Positions 199 through 55,482 of a stretch of DNA of 64,000 bases are shown here, piece by piece (position 1 is the stretch's first letter; every line of letters begins with the position of its first letter). Source of the stretch: a phage. The stretch lies in the sequence record PZ053912.1. One strand, written 5' to 3'. A model generated the notes under the pieces. It saw only the letters and a program-made list of their open reading frames with translations. It did not search any database and was not told the DNA's origin. A program made the position numbers and the translations under genes.

Positions 199-540
199 TT
201 AAAAGAATTTAAATTTTTTCTTGGTCCGTTCATTAAAAGCTTGTTGTACTTGCATTGTAACACATTTTTCAACATGTGGTGCAAGTTCTGCTTTTCTATC
301 CTGGTCAAGAACTGCAAAGTCCATTACGATTTTACCATCAACCCAGTCTAGTTTTGTAATATAGACTATATGATGAGAACCGTCTTCAAGTGTAATCAGA
401 ATCTCTTGAATGACATTTTCCATTGCTGAACGGATAATTTTAAGAGATTCATTAAACACTCGTTCTTTGCGAATGTCTTCCCCTTCCGAAGAAGGGGATT
501 CATCAACGATTTCTAGATTTAAATCATCGAGATTATTCAT
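199..540 (-). CDS. 40: gp40-like head vertex assembly protein; start taken at internal ATG 538-540 overlapping the uvsX stop
   Basis: ORF 199..561; 114 aa from MNNLDDLNLEIVD; position between uvsX and 41 as in T4. Confidence 0.6.
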   Translation of the reverse strand: MNNLDDLNLEIVDESPSSEGEDIRKERVFNESLKIIRSAMENVIQEILITLEDGSHHIVYITKLDWVDGKIVMDFAVLDQDRKAELAPHVEKCVTMQVQQAFNERTKKKFKFF

Positions 541-1705
541 CGAAATCTTCCATTTCGTCAAGGTCGTTTTCTATATCTGCTGCAGACGGAGCATCAGAAG
601 TTTTAACCGGAACTTTAGTTGTTGCTTTGCAATTAATAAGGTCATTAACAGCGTCATCAACTTCTTTAATAGAAGAGATAGCACCTAGTTTATATTTAGT
701 TTCAATTGCATCTCGGAAAGGTTTGTGTTTAAACAACGGTCCCCAGAATTCTACACAATCAGTAGCTTTAGCACGCCATGATTTCTCTTCACGAATCATT
801 TCGCCTGTTTCTTCGTCAAGGAATTCTCGAGCATACCAACCAGCTTTAGGCTTAACCACAAAACCGATTTCAGTTGCCATTTCTAACAAGCCACTGAATG
901 GGTCGATACCACCATCGAAATTAACCGTGATTGGGAAAGTAGATTTCTCTTTAACTGTACGAGATTTTTCTGCTTTCAACGTGAAGTCATAACCGGTCAA
1001 TTCTGTACCTTCTTTAACCTGACGTTTAGAGATAAAGAATACGGTGTTAGCAGAGTAAAGAATACCTGTGCCACCGCCCATAATCTCTTTAGGATACAAT
1101 CCGCCAATTTCCATTGCTGTATGGTTGATTGCAACACATGGAATATCTTTAATAGTCAGATAAGGAGTCACAATGCGGAACAGAGATTTAAGTGCCTTAG
1201 CACGAGACATATCACCTACGACTTTCTCGTTCAATGCATCTTCGGTTTCTTTCTTAGATGCAGTATTACCGATTGAATCGATAAAGATAATAACTTTATC
1301 ACCGCGTTCAATCGCGTCAAGCTGATTAGTCATATCAACTTTAAGTTGTTCGACAGATTGAATCGGAGTATGAACTACACGGTCTAAATCAACACCCATT
1401 GAACGAAAATAAGATTCTGAAGCACCAAATTCTGAATCATAGAACAAACAAATTGCATCTTTATATTTCTTCATATATGCTGCAACCATGGTCAGTCCAA
1501 ACAACGTTTTAAAGTGTTTAGAAGGAGCAGCAAAAATAGTTAAGCCTGATTGCAACCCGGCATTCAGTGCACCACCTAATGCAATATTCAACATCGGAAT
1601 ACGAGTAGGGACTTCATCGCGATTATTAAACAGCTTAGACTTAGTCAAGTCTGCAGTCATTTTAGAAGTAGAAGCTTTAATCAGACGAGATTTTAAATCA
1701 GACAT
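533..1705 (-). CDS. uvsX: UvsX RecA-like recombinase
   Basis: 390 aa; MSDLKSRLIKASTSKMTADL... and RecA-fold core recalled from T4 UvsX. Confidence 0.95.
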   Translation of the reverse strand: MSDLKSRLIKASTSKMTADLTKSKLFNNRDEVPTRIPMLNIALGGALNAGLQSGLTIFAAPSKHFKTLFGLTMVAAYMKKYKDAICLFYDSEFGASESYFRSMGVDLDRVVHTPIQSVEQLKVDMTNQLDAIERGDKVIIFIDSIGNTASKKETEDALNEKVVGDMSRAKALKSLFRIVTPYLTIKDIPCVAINHTAMEIGGLYPKEIMGGGTGILYSANTVFFISKRQVKEGTELTGYDFTLKAEKSRTVKEKSTFPITVNFDGGIDPFSGLLEMATEIGFVVKPKAGWYAREFLDEETGEMIREEKSWRAKATDCVEFWGPLFKHKPFRDAIETKYKLGAISSIKEVDDAVNDLINCKATTKVPVKTSDAPSAADIENDLDEMEDFDE

Positions 1706-1804
1706 TGTATTTTTCCATAGGCATCATTATATTTTACTCATGTTTAAAAGATAAGATGATTATATACTAAGGGTTATACAGCATTTAAAACTTTAAACAG
1801 GCTC

Positions 1805-2353
1805 TTAACGAGCCCATTTGATAATTTCTGTAATCAAATAATTACGTTCGCTTGCATTAAATCCTATAACTTTGTTAGCACCGTCATGATTAAGTAATTG
1901 ATACGTTTGGATTTTGTTATGAATTGCAAACTCTTCAAAATATGAAATGACTGTATTAAAACCGAATGAAGACAAAGTAATAAGATCGTCTTCAAAACTT
2001 TCAGTCATTTCGTTACGTGTTAAAATAATTGTGAACACATCATGGTTTTGGCAAAGACGAACATAATCCTGTTCATAAACGTCAAGAACCGAGTCCGCAT
2101 CTTGTCGAATACGTCCATAAACCCAGTTACTAATATATCCACGGTCTAACAGATAAATCTTAGTAGGGTCTAAATAATTCAACATCGTTTCGAAACAGCC
2201 AACTTCATTTCGAGACTTAACATCGAAACGTCCATCAACTGTTCGTTTAGGGAAATCAATCTTTACATATCTTTCACTAATTTCCATTATGTCATTAATG
2301 AAAGTTGTTTTACCAGCATTATCCGGGCCATCTACTAAAATAATTTTAGCCAT
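1805..2353 (-). CDS. P-loop NTPase, small kinase-like protein, substrate unknown
   Basis: 182 aa; Walker A GPDNAGKTT at residues 9-17; sits in the block between uvsX and gene 42. Confidence 0.5.
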   Translation of the reverse strand: MAKIILVDGPDNAGKTTFINDIMEISERYVKIDFPKRTVDGRFDVKSRNEVGCFETMLNYLDPTKIYLLDRGYISNWVYGRIRQDADSVLDVYEQDYVRLCQNHDVFTIILTRNEMTESFEDDLITLSSFGFNTVISYFEEFAIHNKIQTYQLLNHDGANKVIGFNASERNYLITEIIKWAR

Positions 2354-2354
2354 T

Positions 2355-3254
2355 TTATTCCTCGATTACGACATCTTCATATTTAGGTATATTATACGGC
2401 GAAGAAATTAAAGCGTTAAAGTAGATGAACTCGCCAAGACCTGGATGGAATACTTCTTCAGGATTTTCGAAATATTGAATCTTCGGCCGTCCTTTAAGAA
2501 TTTGATAGTACTCAGTTTTAGTTGGTTTAAAAATTCGAATCAGCGCTTCTTCAGGATACTTATTTCTGTCGAAGCTATTATTTGGATCGGTTATATAAAG
2601 CGGTTGGCCTAATTGAATTGCACATTCAACCACTTGTTCAAAACGATAGCACGGGTCACTAATTCGAAATGGATGAAAAATACCATCTAGATGAATAGGA
2701 GCCAAATCACCTACAAGACGCTGCATGATGGAAGGACGTATAACTTTCTGGGTTACGATAATCTTATTACCATCTGCACCTGCGTTAACCAGCACTTCTT
2801 TTTGACGTTCATTCAACACAGTAGTTTGAAGTGAACGATTAACCGACAACATATCAGTTTTTAAGAATTCGTCAATATAAAAACGTGGTTTATTAGGGTC
2901 TGCAGTGATATTGAAATTGAATTCCACATCAAAAGCGCCGTCATATCCGGTGATATCTGTGATTAGAAAATCACAATCATAATAAGCAATTAATGAATCA
3001 ACCACAAATTCATTTTCAGACCAGAAATATTTACGAGTGTTATACGCGTTATCTTTATACCATAATGGAACAAACTTAAATTCTGGAAAAAGACGTTCGC
3101 ATTCTTTAATATCAGATGCATTACGTGGATATGTAATCACATCACCCGGATTAGCACGGTGCAAATGAAGTTGGAAGTTGCCATCCTTAAGGATAGCATA
3201 CTGTCCAGTTTCATAAGACCGCATACTCAAGATAGGTACGCGGAAATTAGCCAT
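2355..3254 (-). CDS. Hypothetical protein at the locus where T4 has beta-glucosyltransferase; candidate DNA sugar transferase (inference only)
   Basis: 299 aa ORF tightly packed between the P-loop gene and gene 42; no resemblance to T4 beta-gt or any motif I recognise. Confidence 0.4.
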   Translation of the reverse strand: MANFRVPILSMRSYETGQYAILKDGNFQLHLHRANPGDVITYPRNASDIKECERLFPEFKFVPLWYKDNAYNTRKYFWSENEFVVDSLIAYYDCDFLITDITGYDGAFDVEFNFNITADPNKPRFYIDEFLKTDMLSVNRSLQTTVLNERQKEVLVNAGADGNKIIVTQKVIRPSIMQRLVGDLAPIHLDGIFHPFRISDPCYRFEQVVECAIQLGQPLYITDPNNSFDRNKYPEEALIRIFKPTKTEYYQILKGRPKIQYFENPEEVFHPGLGEFIYFNALISSPYNIPKYEDVVIEE

Positions 3255-3970
3255 TAGTCAAGGAATCCTTTAACATAATCAAAATCACGTTCAAACACAT
3301 GGGCACTTACCATGGTATGAGTATAATCACCAACTTCTACACCACATTCGTTAGCGATATAATGAAGTAATTTTCCTTGGAGATAAAAATCCAACTGCAT
3401 AACAACAGCACAGTTCTGAGAACGCATATGACAGTGGGTATAAAGCTTACCATCACGAATATAATAAGTCACTGAGTCAGTACATGGATATTCAAGTGTT
3501 TCGTCCGAATCAAGCAAAGCCTGATCTGAACTTTCAAGAATTTGAAACACAACTCTTCGAGAGTTAGGTTTCTCTTTAAGTTCTTTGAGAAGAGCTGGTA
3601 ATTGGGCCGCAATGCGAGGACCATAGAAAGTGTTGAAGTTCGCCGGCAAAACATCTGATTTTGGTTTAGAAATAAATTTAGCGACATTAGGATATGCCTT
3701 AAACGCTTCTTCTGCGTTGGTACCACCAGAAATCATAAACTTCCAGAAGTCTTCGGCATATTCATAAGAGATGCGGTTAATACGTGGGTCGGTCATTTTG
3801 AATGATGATGGAGTGTCAACAACTACTGTCATAGACCCAATTTCATTACAACGTCCAATACGAGAATCAGTTACGAATTCCGGGTTTTCTAAAATTTCAC
3901 GATTGACTGCTTTAAATGCGGTTTGAAAATCTGCGGCTTTGATATATTTCATTGTGTTATGTTTTCCCAT
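3254..3970 (-). CDS. 42: dCMP hydroxymethylase (thymidylate synthase family)
   Basis: 238 aa; CTDSVTYYIRDGKLYTHCHMRSQNCAVV resembles the active-site block of T4 gp42/thymidylate synthases; T4 position of gene 42. Confidence 0.8.
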   Translation of the reverse strand: MGKHNTMKYIKAADFQTAFKAVNREILENPEFVTDSRIGRCNEIGSMTVVVDTPSSFKMTDPRINRISYEYAEDFWKFMISGGTNAEEAFKAYPNVAKFISKPKSDVLPANFNTFYGPRIAAQLPALLKELKEKPNSRRVVFQILESSDQALLDSDETLEYPCTDSVTYYIRDGKLYTHCHMRSQNCAVVMQLDFYLQGKLLHYIANECGVEVGDYTHTMVSAHVFERDFDYVKGFLD

Positions 3971-3990
3971 GTTTACCTCAATACAATTTA

Positions 3991-4014
3991 TTATATACTC
4001 AATTCGTAAAGCTT
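3991..4014 (-). promoter_or_regulatory. Candidate MotA-type middle promoter upstream of gene 42
   Basis: Minus strand AAGCTTTAC (MotA-box-like) about 11 nt upstream of TATAAT, about 20 nt before the gene 42 ATG. Confidence 0.3.
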
Positions 4015-4146
4015 ATTTGAATTTCTTGACAATGTTGATATAACGTAAAGCTTCAGCATCGATACTTCCAAGAACACTATGAAGAAATGCATCAGCGTAG
4101 TATTCCAATTGAACAGGTTTCTTTAATCACTTTAGCCGCTTTAGTT

Positions 4147-4170
4147 TCAAACAGGCCCTTATGGGCCTGT
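4147..4170 (-). terminator. GC-rich perfect palindrome AAACAGGCCC-TTAT-GGGCCTGTTT (10-bp stem); terminator-like hairpin after the 386-aa gene
   Basis: Seen directly; no clear U tract. Confidence 0.35.
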
Positions 4171-4249
4171 TTAAGAATTTGTTCGTTGCTGTTAATTTTC
4201 ATAGTCAAAATCTCTTCATTAAGTTGGTGGTTAAAAGTTTTTCTAGAAA

Positions 4250-5410
4250 TCATTCCGGGTACCTCAAAGCGTCATCAGAGTTAGTTATATCAATAATAGA
4301 TATAGAGTTTTCTGCTAACCCATTTTTAGATAACTGACGTTTATAATATCTTTCACAATATGTACACGTCGTCCCGCAGATTTCATTAGCACAATCGAAA
4401 TCTGGATGTCTGAACCACCTTTTTTCTAAAAAGCCGTCTAACAAAGAGGTTTCAATATTTACTGTATGTGAAAACTCAATTTCGTTTTCAAGAGTGAAAA
4501 TAGTCTCTAAAGGCTTCCACAGTTCTAACAAATTACCTTCAAACTTTTCAGAAGCGTATGCTTCAAGAACTTTCAAAATGTAGTCTGTGCTACCTGTACG
4601 TCCTGAAACTTTGAATTGAGTGATACCAATATCATTATAAAGTTTCAAATCTTGAGGACGAACAAAACGAGTTCTCAACCAGTTAAATGGGTCTGTATCA
4701 CGAGCTTTAATACAGTGCTGCATAGGATATCCGTTTAAGGATTTAGCATCATCAGCTGTAACATCAGTACTATGGAAAATATAGCAAGAGTCACGATAGC
4801 TACAATGTGTTGTATACCCTTTACCAGCATTAGAACAGAACTCATTTACAAGAACTTCAAATATTATATTGTTCTTATTGCAAAACTCTGCTGCACGCTT
4901 CAGGAAAGAAACTGAACGGTTCTTATGAATTCCACAGCAGACCTTTTTGATATTATATTGGTCATGCAAATATTTGATTTGAGTTACAGCATCGACATGT
5001 AGAATTGTTGAAACTTCAATCTCAATGTCTTTATTGACTTCACGAACAATTTCCATAACAACAGGGTTAGCGATAGTAATACGCCATACGCCTATTGACC
5101 AAAGATACTGAACATAATCCTGAATAGCTTTCTTCTTCCACTCAACTAGTTCTCTTTTTGAACCAGGATTTATCGTGTTGAGTGTATAGTTAAAGCAAAT
5201 ACCTAATTCGTTACAACGTTTAACGTAATCTTCTAACATCTTTTTGTCAACGTCAGGAAGCCTAAAATCAGGTCTGGCTGCTACAAAAGCCATTTCTCTT
5301 GTAGAGCCGTATACTTCATTTATCAAGCTATTAGGATAAGTTTTATTGAGCTCTACGATTTTATCAAGAAGAGCTAAATCAAAATTCGTTCCGATTTTAA
5401 AAGTATTCAT
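4250..5410 (-). CDS. Cys-rich enzyme-like protein of unassigned family; possible Fe-S protein
   Basis: 386 aa; Cys clusters CSNAGKGYTTHCSYRDSC and C-terminal CANEICGTTCTYC (contains CxxxCxxC); lies inside the sugar-nucleotide gene block. Confidence 0.45.
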   Translation of the reverse strand: MNTFKIGTNFDLALLDKIVELNKTYPNSLINEVYGSTREMAFVAARPDFRLPDVDKKMLEDYVKRCNELGICFNYTLNTINPGSKRELVEWKKKAIQDYVQYLWSIGVWRITIANPVVMEIVREVNKDIEIEVSTILHVDAVTQIKYLHDQYNIKKVCCGIHKNRSVSFLKRAAEFCNKNNIIFEVLVNEFCSNAGKGYTTHCSYRDSCYIFHSTDVTADDAKSLNGYPMQHCIKARDTDPFNWLRTRFVRPQDLKLYNDIGITQFKVSGRTGSTDYILKVLEAYASEKFEGNLLELWKPLETIFTLENEIEFSHTVNIETSLLDGFLEKRWFRHPDFDCANEICGTTCTYCERYYKRQLSKNGLAENSISIIDITNSDDALRYPE

Positions 5411-5467: not shown

Positions 5468-5854
5468 TTATAGATTCGGTTTATATGATTTAAATGTTTC
5501 GAATTCGCCTTTATTCATAAGAGCTTTGAATTCGTCAGGACGCATAGCTTTGTCGTCGATAATCCAATCATATACTGGTTTATGTGTTAGCAAATTATGG
5601 TACTTCAAGCCAATGTTTGCCAAGTTCTGAATCAGACTTGGGAGAATGTCAATTGCTATACGACCAGGACCTACTGACTTCATACCACGAGCAGTGTAAA
5701 GCGTTATGGTATGCCCTGCATCATACAGGGCATTAATGGCAGACACCATTTCGACGTCTGGTTTGAAGTTCACGTAATCACGATTGTTATTCCACTCTGT
5801 TATACAATCATCGACATCAAAACAAAGATTAAGCATGTTTTCTACACGGTGCAT
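5468..5854 (-). CDS. HAD-superfamily phosphatase, small
   Basis: HAD motif I FDVDDCIT and C-terminal KPxxDWIIDD; start ambiguous (ATG at 5869, 5854 or 5836); 5854 gives a TAATG overlap with the upstream stop. Confidence 0.65.
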   Translation of the reverse strand: MHRVENMLNLCFDVDDCITEWNNNRDYVNFKPDVEMVSAINALYDAGHTITLYTARGMKSVGPGRIAIDILPSLIQNLANIGLKYHNLLTHKPVYDWIIDDKAMRPDEFKALMNKGEFETFKSYKPNL

Positions 5855-7542
5855 TAGATTCGTTCCCATTGATGAGTGATATCGCCACCGATTGGACGAT
5901 AGGAAACACCAGTTTCTTTATCAGTTAGTACCCATTTACCAGGATTTTTTGTAATCAGAGTAGCCGTTACAGGTTCTGCTACGTCATAACTAATAGAGCC
6001 GTCTTGAAGTACACGGCCCATGTTACGTAATTGCTTAGTCAGAAGTTCCATACCTTTATAATATGCGGCTACCGCTTTAAGTGGATTATTCTTGAAATAA
6101 CCACCTAATGCAATCCAGATAATTGCCACTGCCAAATGATGATACTCGTTAAACGAACTCATCTTTCCATATTTGTAAACTAATGGATTGATGTTAATAG
6201 TCACATTACAAGTTGTTTCATCAATAGTAAACTGTCCCCAGGTCGGATTAGCATTGAATTCATCATAACCTGAAACAGCATAAAGCACTTTAGCTTCATC
6301 GTACAATTTTGGCCCGTAAATCTTGGTTTCGCCAAAATATCCACGAGGGTCGATAAACTTGACTTCACCATTATCAGTAATCATAGTATTACTGAAGTTC
6401 GGGTCACCATGAATAACAGAGTACTGTCCCTGAGAACGGTTATGATAACGAATAAGGTGTTCTAAAGCTTGTTTCAACATTGGCTTCAGACGTCCAATCT
6501 TAGTGTAGTTCACATGTGTGATTTTACCGAATGAATCAATCAATGGTTGAATACTTTCACAACGATCAATAACTTTCGTATAGAACTCTTTAGTGAAATC
6601 ACGGCGAACAGTTTCAGGACTTACAAAATAAGTGTCTGTGCTGAATTTCAGTGCATCTAAAATTGCATCAACAATTTGTGGACGAGCAAGACTCGATTTG
6701 GATTTAATATATTCAAATGCCGGCTTACCTTTAATGCGTTCCATAATAAAGTGGCCGCCAGGATGATAACTTACAATCCGTGGAACTGAATCTGATTTAA
6801 CTTTCTTATACCAATTGACTTCATCTTTTTGAAGTGCAACGCCCTGTTCTGTTAAAGCAATCTTTGTTACCGTTTCTTCGCCAATTTCAACTGCATTAAA
6901 ACTACGATTAAGTTCACGAACTTCATGAGCTTTTTCAAGTTTAGGCATATCACCAAGGTCGATGATATTCATAAGCTCTGATTTATTGAATGCGCTGCCG
7001 TAAAGGAATTCTACGAAATCACGTCCTTTGCAGTATTCATGAATTTCCTCATCAGTAGAACCCATATAGAATTCCCAGTCTTTGAACTGATAAATTCCTA
7101 CAACATTACCACCTGTTGAACCTACATTAGTGATATTTTCACCGTCGAAATTATATCGACATTCGTCACCCTTAACATAGATTGCGTTAACATTCCAAGA
7201 CCACGAACCAAAATCAGGAATAATATCACACCAGTTAACAATTACATTATGGCCGTCTAAATCTTTGTGCAATTTAGCAAGAGCATAAGCAGAACCATAC
7301 GCTTCATCAACTGTACGAATAGTCACATTGAACCCTTCTTGCTCACAATAAGCTCGAACAGTTTCAGCAAATTTTGAATGAACTACTACAATAATTTCAT
7401 CTGCGCCAAGGTCAGAATAAATTGTATACAAATTGCTCAGAATAGTGTCTTGTTTATAGTTAACAAGCACCTTAGGAATATGATGCGTTATTGGATACAA
7501 ACGAGTTGCCAGTCCAGCACCAAGAATAACAGCTTTTTTCAT
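5854..7542 (-). CDS. Bifunctional sugar-phosphate nucleotidyltransferase (N-terminal) / APH-choline-kinase-fold kinase (central-C-terminal)
   Basis: 562 aa; N-terminal AVILGAGLATRL glycine-rich nucleotidyltransferase signature; later VIHGDPNFSN ... KFIDPRG resembles the catalytic loop of APH/choline kinases. Confidence 0.7.
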   Translation of the reverse strand: MKKAVILGAGLATRLYPITHHIPKVLVNYKQDTILSNLYTIYSDLGADEIIVVVHSKFAETVRAYCEQEGFNVTIRTVDEAYGSAYALAKLHKDLDGHNVIVNWCDIIPDFGSWSWNVNAIYVKGDECRYNFDGENITNVGSTGGNVVGIYQFKDWEFYMGSTDEEIHEYCKGRDFVEFLYGSAFNKSELMNIIDLGDMPKLEKAHEVRELNRSFNAVEIGEETVTKIALTEQGVALQKDEVNWYKKVKSDSVPRIVSYHPGGHFIMERIKGKPAFEYIKSKSSLARPQIVDAILDALKFSTDTYFVSPETVRRDFTKEFYTKVIDRCESIQPLIDSFGKITHVNYTKIGRLKPMLKQALEHLIRYHNRSQGQYSVIHGDPNFSNTMITDNGEVKFIDPRGYFGETKIYGPKLYDEAKVLYAVSGYDEFNANPTWGQFTIDETTCNVTININPLVYKYGKMSSFNEYHHLAVAIIWIALGGYFKNNPLKAVAAYYKGMELLTKQLRNMGRVLQDGSISYDVAEPVTATLITKNPGKWVLTDKETGVSYRPIGGDITHQWERI

Positions 7543-7723: not shown

Positions 7724-8359
7724 TCATTGTTCGCCTCGTAACATGGCACCTAGTGCACCGCCAGGGTGGAACTTAAGGAAGTCATTAGAGGTAAATCCAC
7801 GCTCAGACGAAAGGTTGATAGCAAACGTATCGATAAGCGCTAACAACAATGTAGTGGACATGGTCGGAGCCAGAGAATTCTCATCAACCTCTACTGCGAT
7901 GCCTGTACAGAAAGAGTAATCAAAAAGGGCTTCATTTTCTTGTGGAATGTCCGGGTTACAATGCAACAGAATCTGTTTGACGTTCGGACGAATCATTTTA
8001 AGATGCTTAGCCACGCCTATCATTTCTTCAGTTTTACCAGAACGACTAATATGAATCAACACATCATTAGGCGCAATGAATCCTGCATCACCGTGAGAAT
8101 AATGCCCAGTGTTCAAGTACATACTCGGGATACCGAGTGAAGCAAATGTCTCAGAAGCTTTAGTTGCAATATTAGCATTCTTACCAACACCTGTAATAAT
8201 TACTCGGCTTTCATAATTACTAAGTCCTGGGCGTCGAAGAGTTTCTAGAATAGCATTATAACGAGCAGGGTTTTGACTAATTACTTTGGCCATAGCGGCC
8301 AAAGAAGAAGCTTGTTTTATGATTGCGTCAATAGCGATAGTAATAGGAGTAGTTTTCAT
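7724..8359 (-). CDS. SIS-domain sugar-phosphate isomerase, KdsD/GutQ-like arabinose-5-phosphate isomerase core without CBS domains
   Basis: 211 aa; GVGKNANIATKASETFASLG, HGDAGFIAP, ISRSGKTEE and C-terminal FHPGGALG match my memory of the KdsD SIS domain. Confidence 0.75.
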   Translation of the reverse strand: MKTTPITIAIDAIIKQASSLAAMAKVISQNPARYNAILETLRRPGLSNYESRVIITGVGKNANIATKASETFASLGIPSMYLNTGHYSHGDAGFIAPNDVLIHISRSGKTEEMIGVAKHLKMIRPNVKQILLHCNPDIPQENEALFDYSFCTGIAVEVDENSLAPTMSTTLLLALIDTFAINLSSERGFTSNDFLKFHPGGALGAMLRGEQ

Positions 8360-8399
8360 ATTTCTCTCATTTAATTAGTTTACCGTCCATGACATTATA

Positions 8400-11111
8400 T
8401 CAAAAATCGAACATATCGAACAGAGATGCTTTCTTCTCGTAATCGAGTTTCGCTGCTGATGTGAATCCTTCAAGTGGTTTAATAAATGTCTTCTCAAGGA
8501 GAACAGTGTAGTCCATCCAATGAAGTACGTCGTCTTTAATTAAATCGGTGATTTCAGTACCAGAAGGCCATGCGATACATTTATCACCGAATGGGTTTCC
8601 TTCACGTAAAGGCAGAACATATACTTTTTCACCTTCTACAACTTGCGGTGCATCGATATTACCTTTGATAGCCCGGTTATACGTCAGAATTCCACGAATA
8701 TGGAACGGGCATTTGGGACCAGGGAATCCACCTACATCATATTTAGCAATGTTATTCGCAGAAGATACCGACGCGATGCTAATATAATTCAATTGACGGA
8801 ATTCTTTTTCAAACTCTTTAAAATATTCTTGTAATGATTCTTCACCTTCTTGAAGCATACGACGAATACATTCTTTAAGAGCTTTCTGTACTGCTTTAGG
8901 AGTCGAAGATTTCTGAGTCTCTAGACCCATGATTTTGAGTTTAGGCTCAGCGTAACGAGTACCTTCCATATCCCACACGTTTAATGCATAACGTTTCTTA
9001 CCAGTCCAGAATCCACCAATACCTTTAGAACCGAGTGGAGGCCCAGCGATAGCTTCTCGGTCCATGAACATTAAGTGTTGTTTATTGTTCATGTATTCAC
9101 ACATTTCACGGAAACCTCTATCAATAGCTGGTTCCATACGTTCACGAGCGAACTTATCTAAGAAGTCTACCCAATGGTTGGTATCACGGAATTTAGATTC
9201 ACCAACCTTATCGATAATTTTATCAGCAGATACGTAAATAGAGTCTGTATCACCATAAAGAACGAAAGCTTCACCTTCTGTACCACAAACTTCATTCAGA
9301 TATTCATTAACTTTACGTTCAATCCACTGTAAAGCCATTTGACCAAATGTTGTGATTGCAGTAGCATTACGCAAATCATAATAACGGAACCAAACGTTGC
9401 CAAGTGCACCATAAAGTGAGTTGATAAGCAATTTACGGTTAATTTGGGCAGTCATACCTGCAACTTCAGTACGTTGAGCTCTAAACAACATTTCATTAAG
9501 AGATTTAGCAGACAACTTTTTAATCTTTTCTTTAATCTCATCGCTGAAGTCGAAACGATAATCAACATCTAATGGTTCGTCAACAGAAAGATTAGGATTA
9601 TGCAATGCCTCTTTAATTATTTCGCCATTACGTTGAGCCGCAAGCATATAACCTTTATGTTCTTTACGTTGATTAAAGACCTTAGTGATTTCAGTTGGAA
9701 CTACACCATCACGGTCTTTATAATACATCATGCCGTTAGGAGAGCAACTGTACACATCGGAAGGACGTTCAGCGATTGCGTTAATATAATCATGTAGTGG
9801 AGCTACTTTAAACGTTCCTGCTATTGTTTCTGGGCTAATATTCACTTGGCGAATAATACTTGGATACAGAGATGTAAGGTCGAAACTCATTACATATTTG
9901 TATCGATTTGGAATAGGTTCCTTAACAAAAGCGCCGGGATAAGGTTGAACCGGGTGAGAACGACCTTGTGGAATCACCTTGTTCTGCTCTTTAAGGCTAT
10001 TAAAAATAATAGCATCCCATGTTTTAATTGGGCTAAACACAGATTGAATCTGTATCTTAGCATAATAACCCATGTCCAAACTCAAGTTGATGAACTGACG
10101 CTTAGCATCAATTTGCAATACACGATACACGTCGATAATGTTATAAGAAATATATCGTTGGTGATTGCTTTCACGAAGCTTAGAAATAGGGCCGTCATAT
10201 TTCAGTTTACCAACGTTCAATTCAAATTCTGAAATGTAATCCAGAGAATATGACGGTTGATTGGTAAAAGAGAATTTTTTGTAAAGGTCAATGTAATCAA
10301 GAACAGAGATACCGAACAATGTAATGATTTCACGAGAACCATACATGTTTTCGATAACTTTAACACGAGTTTTACGATGTGGTGATAAACGTTTCGCAGT
10401 AGATTCGCCAAAAATATTCTTGATTCGGTTATACACATATGGAATATCAAATGACTCAACGTTCCATCCAGTCAAAATGACAGGAGTTTTCTGTTGCCAG
10501 AAGTTGAGATATTCCATCAACAATTCTTTTTCGTTATCGAACGGCATATAAATGATTTTATCGATAATTTCTGATGGAACTTCATCACCACCTTGTTCTT
10601 GAAGCTTAGCCGCAATTTCGATAGACCATTCTTCTACATTACCATATGGAGAATTCAATAGATCAAATACGTAGAACCTGTCATCAATTGAGTCATAATG
10701 GGTGATAGCATCAATCGGATGTTTTGCTTGCGACGGCTCAGGGAACCCATCCGGAGATGTTACTTCGATGTCGAAGTTAGCCACACGAATTTTTGTATGG
10801 TCGTATTTGATTTCATAGTTATAAGTGTCAGACAAATACGCCAATTTGAAATCGTCCATGCCAAGTGCTTCAAGTCCGATATCTTCCATGCGTTTAATCC
10901 ATTGGGAGGCATCACGCATATTAGCGAACAACTTACGAGTGCACGGCTTACCGTAGATATCGAAATATTTCGTAGCCTGACTTTCTGGACAATGAGCAAA
11001 CAGTGATGGTTTATATTCTACTTCACGAGTACGTTCACGACCATTAGAATCGATGTAACGTTCAAAAATTGAATCACCAATCTGTTCAACCGTTAAGTAA
11101 AATTCTTTCAT
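8400..11111 (-). CDS. 43: DNA polymerase gp43 (family B)
   Basis: 903 aa; MKEFYLTVEQIGDSIFERYIDSNGRERTREVEYKPSLF..., exo motif FDIEV, pol motifs SLYPS and YGDTDS; recalled as RB69-type gp43. Confidence 0.97.
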   Translation of the reverse strand: MKEFYLTVEQIGDSIFERYIDSNGRERTREVEYKPSLFAHCPESQATKYFDIYGKPCTRKLFANMRDASQWIKRMEDIGLEALGMDDFKLAYLSDTYNYEIKYDHTKIRVANFDIEVTSPDGFPEPSQAKHPIDAITHYDSIDDRFYVFDLLNSPYGNVEEWSIEIAAKLQEQGGDEVPSEIIDKIIYMPFDNEKELLMEYLNFWQQKTPVILTGWNVESFDIPYVYNRIKNIFGESTAKRLSPHRKTRVKVIENMYGSREIITLFGISVLDYIDLYKKFSFTNQPSYSLDYISEFELNVGKLKYDGPISKLRESNHQRYISYNIIDVYRVLQIDAKRQFINLSLDMGYYAKIQIQSVFSPIKTWDAIIFNSLKEQNKVIPQGRSHPVQPYPGAFVKEPIPNRYKYVMSFDLTSLYPSIIRQVNISPETIAGTFKVAPLHDYINAIAERPSDVYSCSPNGMMYYKDRDGVVPTEITKVFNQRKEHKGYMLAAQRNGEIIKEALHNPNLSVDEPLDVDYRFDFSDEIKEKIKKLSAKSLNEMLFRAQRTEVAGMTAQINRKLLINSLYGALGNVWFRYYDLRNATAITTFGQMALQWIERKVNEYLNEVCGTEGEAFVLYGDTDSIYVSADKIIDKVGESKFRDTNHWVDFLDKFARERMEPAIDRGFREMCEYMNNKQHLMFMDREAIAGPPLGSKGIGGFWTGKKRYALNVWDMEGTRYAEPKLKIMGLETQKSSTPKAVQKALKECIRRMLQEGEESLQEYFKEFEKEFRQLNYISIASVSSANNIAKYDVGGFPGPKCPFHIRGILTYNRAIKGNIDAPQVVEGEKVYVLPLREGNPFGDKCIAWPSGTEITDLIKDDVLHWMDYTVLLEKTFIKPLEGFTSAAKLDYEKKASLFDMFDF

Positions 11112-54747: not shown

Positions 54748-55482
54748 TTACCTTAAGATTGTTTCAATTTTAGAATAAAGCTCTTCTAAAGAGCCGTCGT
54801 TTGTAATAACTAAATCGCCTTCTTCAATAGGCAACCCAGCTTCTGTAATATGTTTATCAGTGGATTCCGTACCAGAGCGAACCACATGAATAACTGTAGC
54901 ACCCATCGCTCTAGCGGTTTCCATTTCATGGACTTGACGTGTATCTGTTACAACATAGTAATCGAAATCACTTCCAATATAATCCATATAGTTTAATGCA
55001 AAAAGCTTAACCCAATACATACGGTCAAATAAATTAACGACAACATCCGTACCGAGGGCTTGCATAAGACGGCGGATTGACCATGTGTCGTTGATATTAT
55101 TTATAGCTTCACGCAGGGCTTCGTATGGTTTAATATCTAGATACGAATATCCACCTTCTAACGATGATAATACTTTAACATTATTAATTGGTAAATATTG
55201 ACTTTGCAAATAAATTAGCGCTTCTTCCAATAATTCAATAACATCCAACTTATTGAGATTTAATGGTGTTTCACGGTCGTATCCAATGCCTTCAAAGTAT
55301 TCGTATTTCAACTCTGTGAATACATCAGGGTTTTCAGCATGCCTACGTCCCCAGGCTATTGCTAGAGCGTCTTTAATCGGATATGCCAATTGGTATTTTA
55401 CGGATTTAAAGTTTGAATTGATGTAATCAGCAGTAGTGTCTTTACCACTACGTTTGATGCCACTTAAAAAGATTAGCTCCAT
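54748..55482 (-). CDS. 1: Deoxynucleoside monophosphate kinase gp1
   Basis: 244 aa; IFLSGIKRSGKDTTAD and RRLMQALGTDVVVNLFDRMYWVKLFAL... match recalled T4 gp1. Confidence 0.93.
   Translation of the reverse strand: MELIFLSGIKRSGKDTTADYINSNFKSVKYQLAYPIKDALAIAWGRRHAENPDVFTELKYEYFEGIGYDRETPLNLNKLDVIELLEEALIYLQSQYLPINNVKVLSSLEGGYSYLDIKPYEALREAINNINDTWSIRRLMQALGTDVVVNLFDRMYWVKLFALNYMDYIGSDFDYYVVTDTRQVHEMETARAMGATVIHVVRSGTESTDKHITEAGLPIEEGDLVITNDGSLEELYSKIETILR

Follow-up and report, generated by a model that had tools for sequence, protein, structure and literature searches.

A divergent thymidylate kinase-fold protein encoded beside the putative first glycosyltransferase of phage 5-hydroxycytosine modules is a candidate 5-hydroxy-dCMP kinase

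Introduction

Glycosylated 5-hydroxycytosine (5hoC) is a DNA hypermodification recognized only recently, in reports of 2025-2026, and it protects many phages, T4-like ones among them, against restriction and CRISPR. DNA of the RB69 type carries arabinosyl-5hoC, and the proteins gp45 to gp55 have been given roles in what is termed 'pre-replicative synthesis of 5hodCTP' and in the activation and transfer of the sugar (Lee et al., NAR 2026, PMC13326640). Within this set gp45 (RB69p045), which has its counterpart in DLP3 gp78, was termed a putative 'nucleotide kinase', a label that comes from fold matches alone (PMC13326640). Here we analyzed the member of the same protein family that is encoded at 1805..2353 (minus strand) of a 64,000-nucleotide stretch of phage DNA (sequence record PZ053912.1), referred to below as the window. 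The gene is already on record, with a provisional label, in papers of 2026, and the observation itself is not new. What the analysis adds are negative membership tests, a gene trio that recurs as a signature across lineages, a near 1:1 ratio to the putative first glycosyltransferase (GT1), an acidic residue at the thymine-reading position and fusions to MBD4-type domains.

The kinases that invite comparison are of several kinds. Thymidylate kinases (TMPKs; here E. coli Tmk and the human, yeast and vaccinia enzymes) share with the window kinase the fold, an acidic third P-loop residue, an FPxR-like motif and a DRxxxSxxxY motif, and probably also the chemistry of phosphate-to-phosphate transfer. 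In contrast, identity to them is ≈ 14-19%, the window kinase is ≈ 25-30 residues shorter and scores below curated thresholds, and the Arg-rich TMPK lid is replaced by a minimal lid with R113 and an FxDDLI motif. Furthermore, the TMPK Arg that recognizes thymine O4 is aligned with an acidic position in a family whose distribution is tied to 5hoC cassettes. The gp1-type deoxynucleoside monophosphate (dNMP) kinase of T4 (Pfam DNMK, PF21448) is a phage kinase for modified deoxycytidine monophosphate (dCMP), and the reaction of its RB69 orthologue is the one proposed here. However, gp1 belongs to another Pfam family without sequence similarity to the window kinase, and it is universal in T4-like phages, whereas the window kinase is restricted to phages of the 5hoC type. 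Finally, the 5-hmdU DNA kinases (5-HMUDK, PF18748; PMC8989533) are, like the window kinase, small phage P-loop kinases encoded in clusters for hypermodification at pyrimidine C5. Their pairing with HhH-fold amino-acid:DNA transferases in thymidine hypermodification (PMC8989533) is echoed by HhH-GPD fusions among relatives of the window kinase, but the fused domain is MBD4-like and not of the ADDT / aGPT-Pplase family. In addition, O-glycosylation, unlike 5-HMUDK chemistry, calls for no activated acceptor.

We favor the reading that the window kinase would be an ATP-dependent nucleoside monophosphate (NMP) kinase for the 5-substituted dCMP of its module, and we put the probability of this reading at about one half.

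Results

Fold and family membership

The kinase gene is an ATG-initiated open reading frame (ORF) of 182 amino acids on the minus strand. An earlier note on this DNA had described the same frame and its Walker A motif, GPDNAGKTT, giving no strand, and both are as described. Since the translation begins MAKIILVDGPDNAGKTT, the motif occupies residues 9-17 (nucleotides 2303-2329). The product is the orthologue of RB69p045 (NP_861735.1), to which it is 98% identical over 182 residues. This identity, the presence of the gene in 344 phage records and the ≈ 40 positions that are invariant in an alignment of 20 sequences (A1) show that the gene is real and conserved and not a chance frame.

The whole chain has the NMP-kinase (TMPK) fold. 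An AF2 model built with 20 homologues reached a pLDDT of 87 and a pTM of 0.83, with weak spots at residues 31-50 (pLDDT 68-69) and 121-130 (pLDDT 64). Its best Foldseek matches in the PDB were thymidylate or nucleotide kinases without exception. Predicted viral structures yielded a single close relative (Pseudomonas T4-like phage, TM 0.91); ordinary phage TMPKs scored a TM of ≈ 0.6. A profile of 48 sequences (the wide alignment, which reaches down to ≈ 20% identity) matched YorR of the B. subtilis prophage SPbeta (PDB 2axp / 3kb2; 9e-10) and many TMPKs, from 4e-9. YorR is a small, nucleotide-kinase-like and uncharacterised protein that offers no functional transfer; to our knowledge, it is not part of a base-modification cassette. 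Using hhalign, the kinase family aligned with E. coli Tmk and human TMPK at 96% probability (E 3.8e-9). PHROG 761, named 'thymidylate kinase', of which the gp45-type kinases form a subset, matched the kinase with an E-value of 5.8e-45. The family is a small one; a search of 1.84 billion representatives gave 309 clusters at E ≤ 1e-3.

The single sequence stayed below the curated models. PF02223 (Thymidylate_kin) gave no match at E ≤ 1, and the dTMP-kinase equivalog TIGR00041 scored 15.6 bits, compared to a cutoff of 83.25. Relatives of the kinase reached an E-value of 5.8e-8 with PF02223 at best, and 39/48 match it weakly. Thus, the profile search against kinase families that the earlier note had suggested yields a TMPK-like protein with the 48-sequence profile and sub-threshold scores with the single sequence. 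Other single-sequence matches in Pfam, NCBIfam and PDB (AAA_14, MMR_HSR1, RecA, thioredoxin and IS4 transposase) were P-loop-local or sub-threshold and were set aside. Because of the fold and profile matches, we conclude that the kinase is a divergent branch of the TMPK family, and not an AAA ATPase, a paralogue of gp1 or a 5-HMUDK.

The gp1-type dNMP kinase of the window itself is encoded at 54748..55482 (minus strand; Pfam DNMK, E 1.4e-96), where the earlier note had located it. BLASTP gave no significant alignment between this protein and the window kinase, and the kinase did not match DNMK. A gp1 paralogue is ruled out by this lack of similarity, and with its kinase fold the protein is indeed, as had been supposed, an extra kinase beyond gp1. 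PF18748 had no match in the kinase or in its 48 relatives. M6 gp54, a bona fide 5-HMUDK (PF18748, E 7.7e-18), aligned with the kinase family by hhalign over 24 P-loop columns only. Deoxynucleoside kinases (dNK/dCK, PF01712) were also rejected: neither the family HMM nor the xEPV motif was matched, and at the position of their general-base Glu for a 5'-OH acceptor, which follows strand 2, the kinase has FPKR.

Active-site residues

The statements on residues come only from sequence and profile alignments (A1 and the wide alignment). G9, G14, K15, D70 and R71 were invariant in the 48 sequences, and D11 (47/48), S75, N76, Y79, R113, D122, D123 and N133 were conserved in at least 90% of them. In TMPKs, the acidic residue of the P-loop contacts the 3'-OH of dTMP, the Asp of the DR motif binds Mg/water, and the Arg of the same motif bridges the donor and acceptor phosphates. 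The Walker A motif of the window kinase (G9-P-D-N-A-G-K-T-T17; 2303..2329, minus strand) aligned with GLEGAGKTT of E. coli Tmk, and D11 fell on the acidic position. The motif fits the TMPK P-loop pattern GxxxxGK[ST], with K15-T16 at its end. TMPKs carry a catalytic Arg either within the P-loop (type I) or within the lid (type II). As in type II TMPKs, the P-loop is without Arg and has Asn12 instead.

The motif F34-P35-K36-R37 (2243..2254, minus strand) aligned with the FPER/FPQR nucleotide-binding motif of eukaryotic and poxvirus TMPKs. F34, P35 and K36 were invariant in A1, and HMMER aligned FPKR to the vaccinia and yeast enzymes. The stretch D70-R71-G-Y-I-S75-N76-W-V-Y79 (2117..2146, minus strand) corresponds to the motif DR(Y/F/H)xxSxxxY, with Gly as the residue after DR. 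It aligned with MDRYVYSGVAY of yeast TMPK and GDRHDLSTQAY of E. coli Tmk, and S75 and Y79 matched the S...Y/F positions of the TMPK nucleotide pocket. The lid, R113...F120-E-D-D-L-I125 (1979..2017, minus strand), is family-specific and very short; the usual Arg-rich TMPK lid is absent, and R113 (44/48) is the sole conserved Arg nearby.

Glu50 (2204..2206, minus strand) aligned, both by hhalign and by HMMER with yeast TMPK, with the Arg by which TMPKs recognize thymine O4 (human R76 / E. coli R78). The column was acidic in 35 of the 48 sequences (Glu in 22, Asp in 13) and Glu was invariant in close relatives; confidence in this alignment is moderate. As a lead, Glu50 may be a candidate switch to a cytosine-type base, as an acidic side chain would be a fitting partner for the N4 amino group of cytosine. 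Such a Glu-for-Arg logic would resemble that of the ThyA homologues, in which an Asn-to-Asp switch leads to the use of dCMP.

Judged by TMPK structures, the residue pattern would fit an active phosphotransferase with a free 2'-deoxynucleoside 5'-monophosphate as the acceptor. D11 and R71, as contacts to the 3'-OH and the 5'-phosphate, point to a free deoxymononucleotide and not to a residue within DNA. The pattern also bears on the proposal that the protein belongs to the non-kinase P-loop NTPases (AAA-like or GTPase-like) or is a scaffold without catalytic activity. This proposal would account for the weak single-sequence matches to AAA_14 (E 0.04) and MMR_HSR1 (E 0.1) and for the RecA P-loop matches in PDB searches. 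However, those matches spanned only 25-40 residues around the P-loop (residues 1-28 in the case of RecA), no AAA+, GTPase or RecA family gave a whole-domain match, and the whole-chain fold is NMP-kinase-like. Moreover, the invariant P-loop Lys and the DR motif argue for catalysis, and we find the proposal barely credible. A confident assignment to a family such as the AAA ATPases, which the earlier note had named as the contrary outcome, did not emerge; the best fold and profile matches are thymidylate or nucleotide kinases.

The kinase gene lies in an arabinosyl-5hoC module

The first 8 kb of the window were 97.5-98.2% identical to Mosigvirus genomes (phi25-307, HY126, ST0, JS09 and others); the window comes from a Mosigvirus, an RB69-like T-even phage. 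The trio of genes that ends with the kinase begins with the gene for a ThyA-like, flavin-dependent 5-hydroxy-dCMP (5hodCMP) synthase (3254..3970, minus strand; 238 aa), the counterpart of RB69 gp48 and of the HY126 enzyme. It is followed by the gene for GT1, the putative first, base-proximal glycosyltransferase (2355..3254, minus strand; 299 aa, intact; PHROG 3891), which is the orthologue of RB69 gp46:47. The gene downstream of the kinase is uvsX (533..1705, minus strand), and the location between uvsX and a candidate transferase, as first noted, is therefore correct. The ThyA-like protein was all but identical to the crystallized HY126 enzyme (PDB 9iqc, E 7.9e-161; also 9ir2) and carries the signature RSQN...D (RSxN, D169N). 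The RSxN...D signature distinguishes flavin-dependent 5-hydroxy-dCMP synthases from dCMP hydroxymethylases (PMC13326640). Given this resemblance, the signature and the published chemistry of RB69-type DNA, the module next to the kinase is an arabinosyl-5hoC module and not a glycosyl-hydroxymethylcytosine (hmC) module.

The three genes are tightly packed. At 3254 the start of GT1 and the stop of the ThyA-like gene overlap, and the GT1 stop codon (TAA, 2355-2357) is one base away from the ATG of the kinase. The Shine-Dalgarno sequence of the kinase (GAGGA, 2359-2363), as read from the sequence, lies within the last GT1 codons. A promoter/terminator scan found no terminator-like sites in 1500-4400, and promoter-like sites in this region were at chance level in a scan that covers no T4 middle or late promoters. 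The scan weakly supports co-transcription of the kinase with the module. The close packing also agrees with this part of the proposal in the earlier note; the designation of the module as hmC does not stand.

Other neighbors are genes of the UDP-arabinofuranose (UDP-Araf) branch: a HAD phosphatase (5468..5869), a bifunctional nucleotidyltransferase/kinase of the AfhE type (5854..7542; 562 aa) and, beyond the latter, an arabinose-5-P isomerase. Within the bifunctional protein, it is the C-terminal APH-like domain to which the arabinose-5-P kinase step has been ascribed.

Distribution and the ThyA-GT1-kinase trio

Using tblastn, which followed the kinase to ≈ 35% identity, we found the kinase in 344 phage records and GT1 in 349. 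The counts were equal in 8/10 listed organism-name groups (for example, Escherichia 177/177, Acinetobacter 57/57 and Shigella 15/15) and unequal in Klebsiella (25/26) and Serratia (9/14). Groups that are common among hits to the region around the kinase gene (Salmonella 25, Tequatrovirus 10, Citrobacter 11) were not among the top groups of the kinase. T4 carries beta-gt at the position of the kinase.

The trio of ThyA(RSxN), GT1 and kinase was present in all ≈ 12 related loci with enough flank, a count that leaves out the short contigs L017 and L020, which do not reach the ThyA position. The order is ThyA-GT1-kinase in Mosigvirus, in Shewanella phage Thanatos and in several metagenomic contigs, and ThyA-GT1-kinase-GT-GT in Acinetobacter phages, GT being a glycosyltransferase. 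A 177-kb relative (34% identity) has ThyA-GT1-small ORF-kinase-bifunctional, Dhakavirus has bifunctional-HAD-kinase-ThyA-GT1, and Marfavirus has HAD-kinase-U32-small ORF-ThyA-GT1. Hence the position of the kinase shuffles within modules and was always inside the module in the loci examined.

Rhizobium phage RL38J1 (Pootjesviridae) has the order ThyA-GT1-P-loop protein. RL38J1_215 is a clear GT1 homologue (PHROG 3891, 8e-88). As an orthologue of the kinase, RL38J1_214 is marginal (hhalign 44%, E 2e-4; a P-loop and PR in place of DR) and was counted as analogous; a TMPK-like predicted fold has been reported for this P-loop protein (Lee et al. Table 1, PMC13326640). RL38J1 DNA contains hexosylated 5hoC, and no arabinose genes were seen in the module stretch examined. 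The trio also persists without visible arabinose genes in the PolA-phage lineage. Because the kinase co-occurs with GT1 and the trio is kept where arabinose genes are not visible, the kinase goes with the making of the base and the first transfer and not with arabinose synthesis.

These observations bear on two further readings. The earlier note had offered a sugar as a possible substrate, and the protein might phosphorylate a sugar or a sugar phosphate within the UDP-arabinose branch. We consider this very improbable: the arabinose-5-P kinase step is placed elsewhere, in the bifunctional protein at 5854..7542, the TMPK-specific motifs are conserved, sugar kinases ranked below TMPKs in the fold search, and the trio is kept in loci such as that of RL38J1 in which arabinose genes are not seen. 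Alternatively, the protein could be an ordinary dTMP kinase that boosts the dTTP supply, as many GenBank records have it. The name of PHROG 761, the TMPKs among the best fold matches and the P-loop, FPxR and DR motifs common to TMPKs agree with this. On the other hand, the kinase falls far below TIGR00041 and has no PF02223 match, it has an acidic residue where the thymine-reading Arg aligns, its distribution tracks GT1 and the 5hoC cassette nearly one-to-one, and dTMP is already covered by gp1 and host Tmk. An ordinary dTMP kinase is distinctly improbable, and the label 'thymidylate kinase' found in many GenBank records is probably misleading.

Kinase-glycosylase fusions

In eight representative clusters (314-357 aa; P0059, P0060, P0065, P0067, P0069, P0074, P0076 and P0116), the kinase domain is followed by a C-terminal MBD4-type HhH-GPD DNA glycosylase domain. 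The fused domain matched the MBD4 mismatch-glycosylase over its full length (PDB profile, E 7.6e-19), and the Asp of the catalytic column was retained in 7/8. The contigs with fusions are those of non-T4-like (PolA) phages and locus L009; the fusion genes lie at L009 8001-9074, L010 127-1092, L016 1446-2390, L017 216-1190 and L018 5454-6425. In three of the five contexts the fusion gene comes directly after a ThyA homologue (RSNN...YD), and in three contexts and a truncated fourth it comes directly before the gene of a ≈ 350-aa protein. These neighbors (X349/X360) were linked to GT1 by profile-profile comparison (90.7%, E 1.3e-6; shared PxxSMRSY N-terminus); BLAST gave no such link. One of the fusion modules also holds an FMN reductase, an SIS isomerase and an AfhE-like gene. 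Since fusion-bearing trios occur in distant lineages, the trio predates the T4-like phages and extends beyond them.

In P0136 (309 aa, on a 1.4 kb contig), a distantly related kinase domain is fused to a domain of the uracil-DNA-glycosylase superfamily (PF03167), which makes P0136 a second, independent kinase-glycosylase fusion.

The glycosylase in the MBD4-type fusions may repair deaminated 5hoC (5-hydroxyuracil opposite G), or it may point to action at DNA. In the latter case the kinase would act on DNA with GT1, either as a partner that GT1 requires for presenting or flipping the 5hoC nucleotide or as a nucleobase kinase. Such a role would suit the occurrence of the fusions within ThyA(RSNN)-[kinase-MBD4]-GT1-like trios and the inactivity of GT1 alone on 5hoC DNA, and DNA nucleobase kinases paired with HhH-fold enzymes do exist (PMC8989533). 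However, the kinase is outside the 5-HMUDK family (no PF18748 match, and M6 gp54 aligns at the P-loop only), its conserved residues match those with which TMPKs bind a free 3'-OH and a terminal 5'-phosphate, and glycosyl transfer from a UDP-sugar requires no phosphorylated acceptor. The MBD4 domain may also be a mere repair glycosylase fused to a co-expressed gene. Taking both sides together, we regard action on DNA as quite unlikely.

Other observations on the module

GT1 and the bifunctional gene are intact in the window and split in the RB69 reference (p046/p047 at L019 4598-5498 and p052/p053 at 8095-9781). The intact frames agree with the published view that the splits in RB69 are sequencing errors. 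The reaction of GT1 is disputed. The purified Thanatos homologue, TH1_063 (L013 7004-7906), makes UDP-xylose from UTP and xylose-1-P and was termed a pyrophosphorylase (PMC12838424); in PMC13326640 the family is treated as the first DNA arabinosyltransferase. The bifunctional gene is annotated inconsistently across records, as 'dCMP deaminase', 'GlmU' or 'UDP-glucose dehydrogenase'. In phage NRG-P0074, a homing endonuclease gene (L001 8806-9567) lies between the HAD phosphatase and bifunctional genes; it is absent from the window, where the two genes overlap (≈ 5854-5869).

The module also contains a peptidase U32 gene (4250-5410, minus strand; 386 aa), which corresponds to RB69 gp50 and has a weak NCBIfam match to UbiU, a subunit of an O2-independent hydroxylase. 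The U32 proteins RlhA and TrhP are responsible for 5-hydroxy-C and 5-hydroxy-U in RNA and use prephenate. In the metagenomic locus L006 (3469-4901), a chorismate mutase (CM_2) gene, a source of prephenate, lies directly before the U32 gene. The U32 gene may provide a second, oxygen-independent route to 5-hydroxycytosine that backs the O2/flavin-dependent ThyA-like enzyme. RB69 gp50 has been named a 'sugar or heterocycle reductase' (Lee et al., PMC13326640).

In distant modules an FMN reductase/flavodoxin-like gene is found near ThyA: directly upstream in L005 (5507-6016) and just after the kinase fusion in L009 (9068-9613). Such neighbors fit a 5hodCMP synthase that depends on flavin. The module of the window is without such a gene.

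Discussion

We propose that the kinase would bind a free 2'-deoxy pyrimidine mononucleotide with a cytosine-type base and a substituent at C5, namely the 5hodCMP made by the module. It would then transfer the gamma-phosphate of ATP to the 5'-phosphate (ATP + 5hodCMP -> ADP + 5hodCDP), after which host NDP kinase would make the triphosphate for the phage polymerase. In T4-like phages this activity would overlap with that of gp1. It is from the observed fold, the conservation of catalytic residues, the near one-to-one co-occurrence with GT1 and the order of the trio that we infer the substrate and the direction of flux.

Several points weigh against this proposal. The main weakness is the redundancy with gp1 as opposed to the universal retention of the gene. 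The RB69 gp1 orthologue, gp159, converts 5hodCMP to 5hodCDP in vitro and provides the kinase step in the published pathway scheme, and co-expression of gp48 and gp159 alone suffices to give 5hodC in E. coli DNA (PMC13326640). Because of gp1, T4-like phages could in principle do without another 5hodCMP kinase; yet the gene is kept everywhere. Furthermore, the argument from Glu50 in place of Arg depends on low-identity alignments in a region of modest model confidence, and the stacking partner of thymine in TMPKs, an aromatic residue (Phe), is not conserved at the aligned position of the kinase. The MBD4-type fusions hint at action near DNA. Activity data for the kinase were not found in the literature covered, to which He et al. 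2026 and Mahler et al. 2025 do not belong, and essentiality data for the gene were not found in a transposon-mutagenesis preprint that used Bas46.

The redundancy with gp1 would be explained if the substrate were a different one. No single glycosyltransferase arabinosylated 5hoC-DNA with UDP-Araf or UDP-arabinopyranose (UDP-Arap), a result given as 'data not shown', and the authors cannot tell whether the mononucleotide or DNA is the acceptor of the first arabinose (PMC13326640). It is because of these two points that both the action on DNA with GT1 discussed above and a sugar-bearing mononucleotide have to be considered. In the latter case, GT1 would arabinosylate 5hodCMP before replication, and the kinase would turn the bulky product, which gp1 may refuse, into a diphosphate for incorporation. 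A second NMP kinase would then have a task even though gp1 handles 5hodCMP. The near 1:1 ratio of GT1 and kinase fits this idea, and so does their arrangement: in most lineages the two genes lie next to each other or overlap, and in the window a single base separates them and the kinase Shine-Dalgarno sequence is inside GT1. D11 and R71 suggest a site for a free mononucleotide. In contrast, the precedent of T4 is post-replicative glycosylation. 5hodC enters DNA readily without a sugar, and the later arabinoses are added on DNA (PMC13326640). The kinase is also not adjacent to GT1 in Dhakavirus and Marfavirus, and the negative glycosyltransferase result could reflect a missing partner or wrong conditions. 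On what can be argued from these points, we think the sugar-bearing substrate quite unlikely.

Taken more broadly, the first sugar may not be added as in T4, but either by a pre-replicative GT1 with a dedicated kinase or by a GT1 with an obligatory ATP-using partner on DNA. This would be unlikely, though conceivable, and we continue to favor a kinase for 5hodCMP.

Published schemes assign enzymes to hydroxylation, to sugar activation and to the later transfers, and in the literature covered the first glycosylation step has not been reconstituted. The kinase is present nearly wherever GT1 is, although it carries a label from its fold only and its natural step is already covered by gp1. What its substrate is decides whether the protein is the 5hodCMP kinase of the cassette itself, an ordinary role, or serves an unrecognised step with a sugar-bearing nucleotide or as a partner of GT1. 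If the first sugar is not added in the manner of T4, either version would amount to a new logic of phage DNA glycosylation and would explain the failure of single GT1 on 5hoC DNA in vitro. The trio of ThyA(RSxN), GT1 and kinase is a compact signature with which 5hoC-type DNA may be predicted in phage genomes and metagenomes.

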